From the IMG/VR virus record IMGVR_UViG_3300045988_059421, positions 1 through 18,502 of that record: DNA of 18,502 nucleotides; one strand, given 5' to 3'. Each line of letters begins with the position of its first letter. Position 1 is the first letter of the stretch. The notes below the pieces were generated by a model. The model searched no databases. It was not told where the DNA came from and worked only from the letters and a program-made list of their open reading frames with translations. Made by a program: the position numbers and the translations under genes. This document shows positions 13,194 through 18,467 of this stretch, in pieces. This stretch comes from a virus.

Positions 13194-13222
13194 AGTATAG
13201 CACAAGGGTGTTGACTTGTCAA
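13194..13222 (-). promoter_or_regulatory. Late-operon promoter (minus strand)
   Basis: Read on the minus strand it is TTGACA, a 17-nt spacer, then TATACT with an upstream TGc (TGTGCTATACT). On plus-strand coordinates the -35 is at 13217-13222 and the -10 at 13194-13199. It lies about 30 nt upstream of the holin-like gene. Confidence 0.7.
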
Positions 13223-13239
13223 TATACTTGTGGTATAAT
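13211..13239 (+). promoter_or_regulatory. Promoter of the packaging ATPase gene
   Basis: TTGACT (13211-13216), a 17-nt spacer, then TATAAT (13234-13239) preceded by TGg (TTGTGGTATAAT). It lies 33 nt upstream of ATG 13273. Confidence 0.75.
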
Positions 13240-13272: not shown

Positions 13273-14313
13273 ATGCCAAAATCGAATTATTACGACGGAA
13301 CAAAACTATTGTCATTAAAGGATATAAACGGAAAGACACCCGAGGTGTTCATGTGCACCTCTAACCGTAGCGCGGGTAAAACAACCTATTTTAATAGGCT
13401 TGTGGTAAACAGGTTTATTAAACGTGGTGCAAAGTTCGCGTTACTGTATCGATTTAACTATGAGTTAGACGGCTGTGACGAAAAGTTCTTTAAAGATATA
13501 AAAGAATTATTCTTTCCTGAATATGAAATGACCGCCGCAAAAAAGATGAAGGGCATATATCAAGAGTTATATTTGAATGAAGAACCATGCGGCTATGCAA
13601 TTTCTATAAATTCTGCTGACCAATTAAAGCGCAATTCACATTTATTCAGTGATATCGATAACATTATATTCGATGAATTCCAGTCCGAGCAGAACCACTA
13701 CTGTGACAAAGAGGTTGAAAAGTTCATATCTATTCATAATTCTATTGCACGTGGACGTAGCAAACAATCCCGCTACGTACCCGTATATATGATTTCTAAC
13801 CCTGTAACGATACTCAACCCGTATTACGTTGCAATGGATATTTCAACCCGACTTCAAAAAGATACGCATTTCTTGCGTGGTGACGGCTTTGTCCTTGAAC
13901 AGGGTTACAACGAAACGGCGGCGAAAGCGTTAAAGTCAAGCGCTTTTAACCGAGCGTTTGGTTCGAGTGATTATATCGCGTACAGCGCCGAGGGAGTGTA
14001 TTTACAGGATGATTTATCATTTGTCGATACGCCAACAGGGCGCGGAAAATATGTGGCAACAATACGCTATGCGGGTATTGACTATGGCGTTCGAGAATAT
14101 CCCGAATTGGGTATAGTGTTCTGTGACAAAAGCGTCGATTATCAATATCCGCTTAAAATCACAGTGGACACAGCAGACCATAAATTAAATTATGTTATGG
14201 TATCAAGTAACTTTATCCTTATTCAAAAGCTTCGGTATTATTTTGAACACGGTTGTATGCGGTTCAAAGACCTGCAAGCGAAAGAAGCAATACTAAAAGC
14301 ACTTTCATTCTAA
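13273..14313 (+). CDS. DNA encapsidation ATPase (phi29 gp16-like, 346 aa)
   Basis: Walker A is NRSAGKTT and Walker B is NIIFDEF. VVNRFIKRGAKFALLYR matches phi29 gp16 INRFIKYGEQFIYVRR as recalled. SNPVTILNPYY and a C-terminal GCMRF match gp16 SNAVSVVNPYF and GYLRF. Confidence 0.9.
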   Translation: MPKSNYYDGTKLLSLKDINGKTPEVFMCTSNRSAGKTTYFNRLVVNRFIKRGAKFALLYRFNYELDGCDEKFFKDIKELFFPEYEMTAAKKMKGIYQELYLNEEPCGYAISINSADQLKRNSHLFSDIDNIIFDEFQSEQNHYCDKEVEKFISIHNSIARGRSKQSRYVPVYMISNPVTILNPYYVAMDISTRLQKDTHFLRGDGFVLEQGYNETAAKALKSSAFNRAFGSSDYIAYSAEGVYLQDDLSFVDTPTGRGKYVATIRYAGIDYGVREYPELGIVFCDKSVDYQYPLKITVDTADHKLNYVMVSSNFILIQKLRYYFEHGCMRFKDLQAKEAILKALSF

Positions 14314-14431
14314 TTTGTATTCTGCGTTCGTTCTGCACATCGACCTGCACGGGTGACACGGTTGAAATATGCCGCCGTGACAAGGCTATGAACGGTCAAT
14401 TCCTTTGTGTAGACGTGCGTTTAAGAATAAC

Positions 14432-14467
14432 AAAATCCCTTAGAGTTTTCACGCTCTAAGGGATTTT
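14432..14467. terminator. Bidirectional intrinsic terminator between the ATPase and polymerase genes
   Basis: AAAATCCCTTAGAG (14432-14445) pairs with CTCTAAGGGATTTT (14454-14467), giving a 14-bp perfect stem and an 8-nt loop. The A and T runs serve both strands. It lies 4 nt from the polymerase stop. Confidence 0.8.
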
Positions 14468-17185: not shown

Positions 17186-17214
17186 TTGACAAAATATTAC
17201 CGTTGTGGTATAAT
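17186..17214 (+). promoter_or_regulatory. Orphan consensus sigma-A-type promoter pointing rightward, antisense to the replication operon
   Basis: TTGACA (17186-17191), a 17-nt spacer, then TATAAT (17209-17214) preceded by TGg (TTGTGGTATAAT). This is a 12/12 consensus match. No plus-strand ORF lies downstream. Confidence 0.6.
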
Positions 17215-17227
17215 AAAGTGTAAAGAT

Positions 17228-17268
17228 AAAAAGAACCGATGACGAATTTTTTTTTTCGTCATCGGTTC
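17228..17268 (-). terminator. Intrinsic terminator inside the replication operon (minus strand)
   Basis: GAACCGATGACGAA (17233-17246) pairs with TTCGTCATCGGTTC (17255-17268), giving a 14-bp stem and an 8-nt loop. On the minus strand it is followed by TTTTT (plus-strand A run 17228-17232). It lies 57 nt after the stop at 17325. Confidence 0.75.
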
Positions 17269-17324
17269 AATCGGGAGGTTTACCGCCGTGTTGCGGCAGT
17301 TAAGGAAAGGAGAAATCTTATTGT

Positions 17325-17588
17325 TTATTTGATACTGTCAACGAGTTCCGCGTATTCGATAAAGTCGCTGATGGACATTTCGTAGCGGTTTTCTTCAATG
17401 GATTCGATATTGACCAGCGTAACGACACGCCCCGTGTCTTTGTTGTCGTGTTCTCGATGCAGCTTTTTGGTAAGCGCGTAAAGAGTAGGAGCGCCCTCAC
17501 ACATTTCCGTAAAGTGATAGTCAACACCGTTTTCGTTTACGGTGTATGTATATGTCGTTGTCTGAATGGTTTTACGGATATACTTCAT
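17325..17588 (-). CDS. Hypothetical protein (87 aa), in the phi29 gene 4 position
   Basis: The ORF track starts it at GTG 17597. The ATG at 17588 (MKYIRKTIQ...) follows GGCGGGTG by 6 nt and lies 1 nt after the upstream stop. No motif recognised. Confidence 0.6.
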   Translation of the reverse strand: MKYIRKTIQTTTYTYTVNENGVDYHFTEMCEGAPTLYALTKKLHREHDNKDTGRVVTLVNIESIEENRYEMSISDFIEYAELVDSIK

Positions 17589-17589
17589 G

Positions 17590-17979
17590 TTAGTCACCCG
17601 CCTTTGCTACAGGGCGGCAGCCGAGGAAGTTGCGACCCTTGTAGTTCTGGGACGGTTTTGCAAAGCACTCGATCTCCATGCCGTCGGTCTCGTCGAACGT
17701 CTCTACAATGTCGAGGAAAGACTGAATGAACGACTGGGAGCCGGTGTGATACAGAACGCCGTCTGCGATAACGACAAGCTTATCGTATTCCTTATCCTGA
17801 CCGGGTTTCGGGTTGTCGTTCACAGTGTGAACCATTGCCCATGCATCCGGATAGGAGAGAACGAGTTTACCGAATTCTTCGATAGCCTTTTCAAGGTTCT
17901 CACCGTTGGAATAGTTCATTACGTTGTACTTGTCCATTTTGCTGAGGTCTGTAGATTTGATGATAGTGTTAGTAAGCAT
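17590..17979 (-). CDS. Probable ssDNA-binding protein (phi29 p5-like, 129 aa)
   Basis: First gene of the replication operon. MLTNTIIKST... and ...VVIADGVLYHTGSQSF...DIVETF...KGRNF parallel phi29 p5 MENTNIVKAT... and ...TIFAADGSLYSAISKT...DLIDLV...KGNVFF, recalled from memory. The size is similar (p5 is 124 aa). Confidence 0.55.
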   Translation of the reverse strand: MLTNTIIKSTDLSKMDKYNVMNYSNGENLEKAIEEFGKLVLSYPDAWAMVHTVNDNPKPGQDKEYDKLVVIADGVLYHTGSQSFIQSFLDIVETFDETDGMEIECFAKPSQNYKGRNFLGCRPVAKAGD

Positions 17980-17987
17980 AGTTTTGT

Positions 17988-18016
17988 TTGTCCTTTCAAA
18001 TAGTATTTGTTATAAT
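17988..18016 (+). promoter_or_regulatory. Possible rightward promoter at the start of the right non-coding end
   Basis: TTGTCC (17988-17993), a 17-nt spacer, then TATAAT (18011-18016) with an upstream TGt. The region is AT-rich, so a chance match is possible. Confidence 0.35.
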
Positions 18017-18145
18017 GAAGAATAGAGTAGAGTATGGAAACTGACAATGAAATTACGCAGAAAGGAGCTTTTATCCTTTCTTAAATATTCTTTTGTAATC
18101 ATCTGAAACTTCGTTGCAACTTGCGTTCTTCTTGATTACGTATAT

Positions 18146-18174
18146 ATCTTAACACATGTGGGAAGAAATGTCAA
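18146..18174 (-). promoter_or_regulatory. Promoter of the replication (early) operon
   Basis: Read on the minus strand it is TTGACA, a 17-nt spacer, then TAAGAT preceded by TGt (TGTGTTAAGAT). On plus-strand coordinates the -35 is at 18169-18174 and the -10 at 18146-18151. It lies about 160 nt upstream of ATG 17979. Confidence 0.6.
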
Positions 18175-18236: not shown

Positions 18237-18260
18237 AAAAATGACGGTTAGTCATTTTGT
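18237..18260. repeat. Subterminal palindromic repeat R1
   Basis: AAAATGAC-GGTTA-GTCATTTTGT. The 8-nt arms AAAATGAC and GTCATTTT are exact reverse complements around a 5-nt core. Confidence 0.85.
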
Positions 18261-18391
18261 ATGCATGGCATGTCAATCCTTGGTCGTGCGTTCGCCTGAT
18301 TCCGTCGACAGAGAGCACGTGTTCCGGCGGGGTTACGTATTGCACCGTGTCCCGTCCGCAGAGCGGAGCAGAGCGACGCGGACGGCGGGTG
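18261..18391. other. GC-rich structured non-coding island between repeats R1 and R2
   Basis: By my count 61 of the 90 bases in 18301-18390 are G or C, in a genome that is otherwise AT-leaning. It contains an 8-bp GC stem: CCGTCCGC (18352-18359) pairs with GCGGACGG (18378-18385). It also contains degenerate direct units beginning CCGTC..CAGAG at 18302 and 18352. Confidence 0.6.
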
Positions 18392-18414
18392 AAAACTGAC
18401 TGTTAGTCATTTTG
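18392..18414. repeat. Subterminal palindromic repeat R2
   Basis: AAAACTGAC-TGTTA-GTCATTTTG. It differs from R3 only at the first core base. The left arm carries one extra C relative to R1. Confidence 0.85.
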
Positions 18415-18427
18415 TGCGCGACATGGT

Positions 18428-18450
18428 AAAACTGACCGTTAGTCATTTTG
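18428..18450. repeat. Subterminal palindromic repeat R3
   Basis: AAAACTGAC-CGTTA-GTCATTTTG. It lies 36 bp (start to start) from R2 and ends 17 bp before the right ITR. Confidence 0.85.
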
Positions 18451-18467
18451 CGCTCGCGCTGATGCCA

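Follow-up and report, generated by a model that had tools for sequence, protein, structure and literature searches.

In the right arm of a complete linear phi29-like phage genome of 18,502 bp (IMG/VR record IMGVR_UViG_3300045988_059421, analysed over its full length and here called the window), a consensus promoter, P_as, is oriented antisense to the early operon that encodes an SSB-like protein and a double-stranded DNA-binding protein (DBP). The pattern of its conservation indicates that P_as is a genuine host sigma-A (sigma-70-type) promoter maintained by selection, and it is expected to fire in vivo. It lies directly behind an intra-operon terminator and just before the genes for the putative terminal protein (TP) and the DNA polymerase, together TP-Pol. 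Judged from sequence, we give an even chance to the proposal that P_as works as an antisense-RNA or convergent-transcription brake and insulator on the early operon and on read-through into TP-Pol.

P_as is a plus-strand element and consists of a -35 hexamer TTGACA (17186-17191), a 17-nt spacer (AAATATTACCGTTGTGG, 17192-17208) and a -10 hexamer TATAAT (17209-17214). The spacer ends in TGTGg (17204-17208), a TRTG or extended -10 motif, and thus hexamers, spacing (16-18 nt) and TG are all those of a sigma-A or sigma-70-type promoter. Among the 55 promoter-like matches returned by the promoter scan of the window it is the only 12/12 site, which agrees with the initial annotation of TTGACA-17-TGgTATAAT as the best promoter match. 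This rank is limited to the present genome, as the sense early promoter also reaches 12/12 in two relatives (L034 and L040). When the window was shuffled 3000 times with dinucleotides preserved, 52 of the shuffles contained a 12/12 site and 3 (~0.1%) contained one with the TG. The -10 context GTGGTATAAT is common to P_as and to the plus-strand promoters at 149-158, for the left-end operon, and 13230-13239, for gp16. From the usual distance of 6-8 nt to the -10, the antisense RNA is predicted to start at 17220-17222 (plus strand), coinciding with the distal end, the last base, of the U-tract of the sense terminator.

The comparison set for the P_as region was collected from 32 IMG/VR contigs, from Logan/ENA contigs with a diverged TP and from eight metagenome contigs. 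The DNA-pattern scan of metagenomes, whose gap N{45,60} misses variants with a 44-nt gap including the window itself, yielded eight loci, all of the common type. Together these gave 34 distinct versions. The comparative depth is about five lineages, because protein searches with p87 (the 87-aa DBP) and with TP found no distant homologues of either.

Across the 34 versions, the -10 hexamer TATAAT is unchanged and the spacer is always 17 nt long, while the TG is retained in 31. The -35 hexamer reads TTGACA in 31 versions, the others being TTTACA (1), TTGACT (L136/L040 type) and TTGGCT (L034). The 12 upstream bases of the spacer are nearly all replaced in L034 and L136/L040 (1 and 2 of the 12 match the majority version), yet both hexamers, TRTG and the 17-nt spacing are still kept. 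The two replaced spacers resemble each other and count as one or two independent events. As a control, we followed a promoter-like plus-strand site about 800 nt away (17988-18016, 10/12 with TG), which lost its -10 in most relatives. P_as is taken as real on the strength of hexamers, TG and 17-nt length that persist while the spacer turns over, together with the shared -10 context. The control site was itself a candidate second antisense promoter, which with a hairpin at 18060-18085 could have produced a small RNA against the early 5' untranslated region (UTR); it was rejected for its unconserved -10.

Conservation could also arise for other reasons. The promoter might be fortuitous or vestigial, its blocks being kept for minus-strand reasons (the TP 5' UTR, the terminator tail) or the clade being too young for decay. 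The clade is indeed narrow, TATAAT-AAAGTGTAAAGA overlaps the U-rich tail of the terminator, and the entire intergenic region is conserved at 97-99%, compared with 85-95% for the flanking coding sequences (CDS), even where TP identity is just 44-52%. However, the spacer was turned over in L034 and L136/L040 under constant hexamers, TG and length, the weaker site 800 nt off decayed within the same period, and the shuffles show how rarely a 12/12 site with TG arises by chance. We therefore regard a fortuitous promoter as very unlikely.

The surroundings of P_as explain what it could act upon. On the minus strand, the right arm runs from the sense early promoter P_E through a 160-nt leader, the SSB-like gene (17979-17590), the 87-aa gene (17588-17325) and 56 nt of non-coding sequence to a strong hairpin, and continues after a further 54 nt with the 238-aa TP-like gene (17167-16451) and the polymerase gene. 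The SSB-like gene has a weak match to Pfam Phi29_SSB. For p87, the profile match (PHROG 6370 'dsDNA binding protein', E 5e-5) and the predicted fold (AlphaFold model pLDDT 90.8; top Foldseek/PDB match phi29 p6, 8pw4_A, probability 1.0, TM 0.55) indicate that it is a phi29 p6-like dsDNA-binding protein. Substitutions in both the 87-aa and the SSB-like gene are three-periodic, the pattern of real minus-strand genes. The gene of the putative TP has the position of phi29 gene 3: as in phi29, it immediately precedes the polymerase gene, with an overlap of 4 nt.

P_E (18146-18174, minus strand, TTGACA-17-TGtTAAGAT) is conserved in the relatives and convergent with P_as. The two form the layout of convergent interference, that is two conserved face-to-face promoters with overlapping transcription units, the overlap being about 920 bp. 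At the other end of P_as, the TP start codon (17167-17165, minus strand) is preceded by the Shine-Dalgarno (SD) sequence AGAGGT (17179-17174), and the -35 hexamer of P_as begins 19 nt upstream of the ATG. In the sense direction the order is hence terminator (17268-17222), P_as (17214-17186) and TP SD (17179-17174), with P_as filling the gap exactly. The promoter scan found no minus-strand promoter-like site between 17168 and 17232, and TP-Pol therefore appears to depend on read-through of the terminator across P_as. The one TP promoter considered between the terminator and the ribosome-binding site (RBS), TTTACA-19-TAATAT, is not conserved in L034 and L136.

The putative TP is hypervariable among close relatives, with amino acid identities of 44-92%, whereas SSB reaches 85-97%, gp16 93-99% and the capsid protein 92-98%. 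Such a contrast suggests, as far as sequence comparison can tell, that TP is subject to mosaic exchange or diversifying selection. The intergenic region beside the variable gene stays nearly identical.

The hairpin between the DBP and TP genes is, in the first place, a feature of the sense messenger. It comprises a 14-bp stem (17268-17233) with an 8-nt loop, and is about equally stable as plus RNA (-22.8 kcal/mol) and as minus RNA (-21.9 kcal/mol). A U-tract follows it on the minus strand only (GGTTC-TTTTTATCTTT; U-tract UUUUUAUCUUU, 17232-17222), and it is the top terminator match of the whole window, classed as a minus-strand intrinsic terminator (17268-17222). The plus-strand stem has AAUCGGGAGG behind it instead of a U-tract, and so lacks what an intrinsic terminator needs. 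The middle of the stem covaries in five forms (CGAT/ATCG, CAAT/ATTG, CAGT/ACTG, CACC/GGTG and CAC/GTG), and double changes at three stem pairs across lineages are compensatory. The apical stem and the A8/U8 loop are invariant, whereas the remaining stem covaries. The hairpin is thus primarily the terminator of the sense SSB-DBP mRNA, and the antisense RNA carries its complement. The initial annotation had described it as a hairpin of the plus transcript; the hairpin exists, but as a plus-strand feature it does not hold, since the U-tract is on the minus strand only.

A similar picture emerges for the 56-nt non-coding stretch at 17269-17324, which is 97-99% conserved, above the flanking CDS. 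It contains a second hairpin (17282-17300, minus strand, ACUGCCG-CAACA-CGGCGGU), in which a U.G pair of the sense RNA becomes a C.A mismatch on the plus RNA. Hairpin 2 is more stable as minus RNA in 34 of the 34 versions (mean difference in free energy -2.6 kcal/mol), it covaries on the minus strand, and its loop is GAAA there in L136. Plus RNA of the stretch would contain GGGAGG (17273-17278) and AAGGAAAGGAG (17302-17312), while the sense RNA has CU-rich, anti-SD-like motifs. The 56 nt are a structured 3' UTR of the sense SSB-DBP mRNA. Read along the minus strand, 17269-17324 and its continuation present, in order, a CU-rich motif, hairpin 2, a C-rich motif and the terminator, with CUCCUUUCC and AAACCUCCC as the anti-SD-like motifs. 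By analogy with the layout of Firmicute small RNAs, this 3' UTR could itself be a 3'UTR-derived regulator.

As for the plus transcript, its predicted course is the one first described: a start near 17220-17222, the 56 nt of non-coding sequence (17269-17324), and then the 87-aa and SSB-like genes in antisense. The alignment fold revealed no conserved architecture in it beyond the complement of the sense terminator. Two further plus-strand hairpins were rejected. A terminator-like one at 17424-17438, within the p87 CDS, is broken in L003, L031, L033 and L034, and a third one proposed by RNAalifold (AAAGGA-GAAA-UCUU..., rich in A/U and G.U pairs) is broken in both diverged lineages. Further along, the 5' leader of the early mRNA contains a conserved hairpin at 18060-18085 (AGAAAGGAGC-UUUUAU-CCUUUCU) with SD-like and anti-SD-like arms. 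Its plus-strand version has a U-rich tail and counts as terminator-like in the scan of L040. The antisense transcript could end there.

No protein gene was found behind P_as. The only candidate named at first, a 14-codon GTG frame at 17288-17332, is present with GGGAGG (17273-17278) 9 nt before it, but neither its frame nor its start codon is conserved, and we judge it not to be a gene. In most relatives a 1-nt insertion shifts the frame and opens an ATG frame for an unrelated peptide of 32 codons, and a start codon is missing altogether in L012, L031 and L033. A 3-codon frame (TTG-TTT-ATT) behind AAAGGAG fared no better, with neither frame nor start codon conserved. Longer antisense frames at 17448-17729 and 17566-18003, as well as frames of 103-131 codons in relatives, are open in many genomes and interrupted by stop codons in several (L005, L007, L015, L016, L018, L031 and L032). 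A promoter pointing rightward without a protein gene, as first described, is therefore confirmed by the lack of conservation of both the GTG frame and the antisense open reading frames (ORFs).

That P_as serves a translated micro-ORF or a longer antisense ORF is extremely improbable in the light of these comparisons. In its favour, GGGAGG precedes the GTG at a distance of 9 nt, most relatives have an ATG at the same place, AAAGGAG precedes the TTG at 8 nt, and frames across p87 and SSB are often open. On the other side, the frame varies by lineage and its peptides would be unrelated in sequence and 13-14 or 32 codons long, a start is missing in three lineages, and stop codons interrupt the long frames in several relatives.

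A packaging RNA (pRNA) had been considered as a product of P_as. The pRNA of phi29 has a discrete length of about 120-174 nt, a closing helix and a multi-way junction, features that were not found in the P_as transcript. A weak A/U closing helix appears in a single minimum free energy (MFE) fold, but neither in the centroid nor in the alignment fold, and the RF00044 (pRNA) covariance model has no match at E<=5 anywhere in the window. With no conserved plus-strand terminator or closing helix, no Rfam match and the structure located on the other strand, the packaging role for the transcript from 17221 onward is rejected.

A better candidate is found elsewhere in the genome. Directly after the gp16 stop codon, on the plus strand, a structured RNA of ~115-120 nt (14314-14435) ends at a bidirectional terminator (14436-14466). 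It is 99-100% conserved and its MFE has a z-score of -4.9. The predicted fold consists of a long helix of the 5' and 3' ends, a 3-nt bulge and inner hairpins, one with a conserved UGAAA loop. The same architecture with another sequence follows gp16 in L034, MT835814, MT835854 and CS229P2 (polymerases 48-49% identical). The 5' side of the closing helix reads UAUUCUGCGU, UAUCUUCUCAUGU, UAUCUCCAUAUG or UAUCAUCUACUG, each with a matching 3' partner, and 17 of the 23 inner pairs have double changes, an apparent covariation that is read from single-sequence folds. By sequence and predicted fold, this RNA looks like the packaging-RNA candidate of the phage group, and would be a pRNA analogue outside Bacillus phages.

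The same data bear on the wider notion that P_as makes a stable trans-acting small RNA, be it a pRNA, a ribosome- or protein-binding RNA with GGGAGG and AAGGAAAGGAG, or a small RNA against a host target. The promoter is of the strongest type, a hairpin is near the 5' end of the transcript, and in Firmicutes SD-like motifs could stabilise an untranslated RNA, by analogy to STAB-SD; two such motifs are present here. An RNAfold prediction for 17220-17340 shows the weak A/U closing helix around three hairpins. This helix is missing from the centroid and alignment folds though, a conserved 3' end is lacking, hairpin 2 is a minus-strand structure, Rfam gives no pRNA match at E<=5, and a far better pRNA-like candidate stands directly after gp16. 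Such a small RNA hence deserves very little credence.

The sense operon is the probable target. According to the mechanism that we favour, P_as would launch a non-coding countertranscript whose first base falls at the last U of the SSB-DBP mRNA terminator and which proceeds against the DBP and SSB genes toward P_E, without a conserved terminator. RNA polymerase sitting on P_as, or firing from it, would occupy the 54 bp that separate the terminator from the TP ribosome-binding site, and polymerases from P_as would meet those from P_E head-on. The antisense RNA would pair without a mismatch both with the SSB-DBP mRNA, at its 3' end, and with any transcript that reads through. In combination, these effects would set how much transcription reaches TP and polymerase and how long the SSB-DBP message lives; as a brake, they would restrict the former and shorten the latter. 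With more countertranscript being made at higher genome copy number, the effect would increase in the course of replication.

The anatomy fits the antisense or convergent-transcription switch that had been suggested, with P_as between the terminator and the TP RBS and facing a conserved P_E ~920 bp away. Likewise, the order of terminator, P_as and TP RBS fits a countertranscript that controls the dosage of TP and polymerase. From this layout we infer a regulatory effect of P_as and, tentatively, its sign, and for both suggestions it is the arrangement that stands, while the regulation itself stays conditional.

Several points weigh against a brake on the early operon. The P_as clade is narrow, every p87 homologue being at least 71% identical. 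The Clostridium phage CS229P2 and MT835814 (polymerases 48-49% identical) have a hairpin before TP but no antisense promoter; P_as is absent outside its clade, and therefore the element is not essential to the phi29-like way of life. A conserved plus-strand terminator was found neither by the scan nor among the relatives, which leaves the antisense RNA without a defined 3' end. In the sense RNA there is no convincing antiterminator or preemptor fold that the countertranscript could switch. No operator for regulating either of the convergent promoters was found, and a pair of strong, constitutive promoters in convergent orientation would seem wasteful without regulation of one of them. Finally, whether TP-Pol would be repressed or released from termination is not readable from sequence.

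The folds of the sense RNA illustrate the missing switch. The full sense fold consists of hairpin 2 and the terminator only. When the 3' arm is removed, the 5' arm of the terminator pairs ~135 nt upstream within the translated p87 CDS, and does so inconsistently between lineages. A pairing of the sense linker AACCUC with the TP SD GAGGUU, seen in both the MFE and centroid folds, is specific to the window; alignment inspection shows that the relatives have GAGGGU and would form ~4 bp.

If the sign were positive, the countertranscript would be an antiterminator that raises read-through into TP-Pol as the RNA accumulates. Pairing would nucleate on the single-stranded C-rich linker (AAACCUCCCGAUU) or through an A8/U8 loop-loop contact, and then invade the nascent terminator at its 5' arm. 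Since TP-Pol lacks a promoter and stands behind a terminator of ~-22 kcal/mol, some means of relief is attractive. With its start downstream of the terminator, the RNA contains the full terminator complement, whereas the countertranscripts of classical attenuation systems pair upstream of the attenuator. The apical stem and A8/U8 loop are invariant while other stem parts covary, and the linker is G/C-rich and unpaired on both RNAs. But the antisense copy of the hairpin is equally stable (-22.8 kcal/mol) and would need opening, and polymerase on P_as should physically block read-through. To our knowledge there is no well-established precedent for antitermination with the present geometry. We consider antitermination unlikely.

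Alternatively, P_as could be an element at the DNA level only, a polymerase roadblock, insulator or sink between a highly expressed SSB-DBP unit and TP-Pol, with the RNA as a by-product. An open complex at 17186-17214 would cover the U-tract, the proximal terminator arm and the TP ribosome-binding site, and the plus RNA has neither a conserved structure beyond the hairpin nor a terminator. Yet a stronger terminator would be the cheaper insulation, and the 56-nt region past the hairpin is also highly conserved, though a function on the sense strand may explain this. A purely DNA-level role is, in our judgement, improbable.

A further tentative possibility, which we hold to be rather doubtful, is that the countertranscript serves as a copy-number sensor for the protein-primed linear replicon, acting on the terminator before TP-Pol. 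Its level would track the number of genomes, and it would either enforce termination or relieve it, the latter option resting on the full terminator complement and the invariant A8/U8 loop pair. If true, this would be a plasmid-style antisense control of replication proteins in a lytic phi29-like phage.

The phages carrying P_as form one genus-level group of uncultured human-gut phi29-like phages. The window has perfect 35-nt inverted terminal repeats at its ends and encodes a type-B DNA polymerase (16454-14472, minus strand; Pfam DNA_pol_B_2, E 5e-48) and a gp16-type packaging ATPase (13273-14313, plus strand), besides a phi29-type major capsid protein, a tail knob gp9 and an M23 peptidase / tail lysozyme protein. 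The nearest cultured relatives are the Clostridium symbiosum phages CS229P1-3 (polymerase identity 49%), while the nearest sequences overall are uncultured contigs from human faeces.

Other features of the genome were noticed along the way. A hammerhead ribozyme of type II (RF02276; 38.5 bits against a gathering score of 37) is located on the plus strand at 1027-1093, between two genes of the left-end operon. It is found at the same place in 17/17 fetched relatives (35.8-42.4 bits), nine of which have a second copy ~750 nt downstream. The left operon also contains exact direct repeats of 24 nt (1092-1115 / 1559-1582) and 17 nt (343-359 / 587-603), which span the RBSs and start codons of consecutive small genes and suggest duplicated gene starts. 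At 13194-13239, two divergent near-consensus promoters overlap in a common palindromic -35 region (TTGACTTGTCAA), one for the late structural operon (minus strand, TTGACA-17-TATACT) and one for gp16 (plus strand, TTGACT-17-TATAAT), an arrangement shared with CS229P2. At the right terminus, a palindromic 21-29-nt repeat (AAAATGAC-N5-GTCATTTT) occurs in three copies (18237-18265, 18392-18420 and 18428-18456). The copies lie within the 290-nt non-coding end and flank a G+C-rich island (18280-18390), in a region that is poorly conserved among relatives. They may be a protein-binding or origin-associated array.

Several known systems resemble the P_as locus, each in part. Nearly all knowledge of gene control in phi29-like phages comes from phi29, whose proteins p4 and p6 act on the divergent promoters A2b/A2c/A3 and whose early operon has no annotated antisense promoter. 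A literature search for antisense promoters in phi29-like phages likewise returned nothing. The closest phi29 counterpart is the A1/pRNA gene (RF00044), which, like P_as, has a strong early promoter without a protein gene behind it. However, phi29 pRNA, a discrete species of 120-174 nt, contains an A-helix, a three-way junction and paired loops and is made at the genome end in the direction of the early operon, and the P_as transcript has none of these properties.

Beyond phi29, lambda OOP, which acts on cII, and the 3'-overlapping antitoxin RNAs SR4/bsrG and RatA/txpA of Bacillus subtilis share with P_as a constitutive promoter just downstream of the target and a non-coding RNA that reads back over the target and is fully complementary to the 3' part of the mRNA. 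The geometry of P_as is that of the lambda OOP type, with the promoter downstream of its target and an RNA start that abuts the end of the terminated sense mRNA. The OOP and antitoxin RNAs are, however, short and have their own terminators, while the P_as RNA has no conserved plus-strand terminator and, unlike the OOP type, also covers the intra-operon terminator that gates the replication genes.

The prgQ/prgX locus of the Enterococcus plasmid pCF10 is similar in another respect. It is also a Firmicute system with face-to-face promoters and a sense terminator that decides on a downstream operon, and in both loci collision and antisense pairing are plausible. In pCF10, the promoters PQ and PX are 223 nt apart, and Anti-Q is processed to a defined species that enforces termination at IRS1 via an alternative fold. 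The P_as locus differs in its overlap of ~920 nt, in that no alternative fold was found, and in an antisense promoter that lies downstream of the terminator, not upstream. In the pR/pL pair of coliphage 186, a strong phage promoter fires head-on into the unit of another phage promoter, as P_as would, with no need for an RNA function. Its promoters are 62 bp apart and belong to a lysis-lysogeny switch with a repressor, whereas the P_as phage is lytic and no operator was found.

Replication control in the plasmids pT181 (RNAI) and pIP501 (RNAIII) provides the last parallel, with an antisense promoter in the region that precedes the replication gene and an intrinsic terminator immediately ahead of its RBS. 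The logic of a negative feedback proportional to dosage would apply to P_as as well. The replicon is a different one, a lytic protein-primed linear phage and not a plasmid, and the P_as RNA is not a short terminated stem-loop and contains the terminator complement. No preemptor fold was found. The P_as locus thus resembles pT181/pIP501 attenuation in layout but lacks one of its defining features, because no antiterminator fold was found for the RNA to switch.

Taken together, P_as joins the known cis-antisense and convergent-promoter controls of phages and plasmids, and is new for phi29-like phages; its position directly behind an intra-operon terminator is unusual. For annotation, the lesson of the locus is to assign the hairpin and the conserved 56 nt to the sense mRNA and to seek the candidate packaging RNA elsewhere. 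If our proposal is true, a non-coding element of ~50 bp would set the ratio of SSB/DBP to replication enzymes through RNA or collision in uncultured human-gut phages, a mode of control unlike that of phi29.

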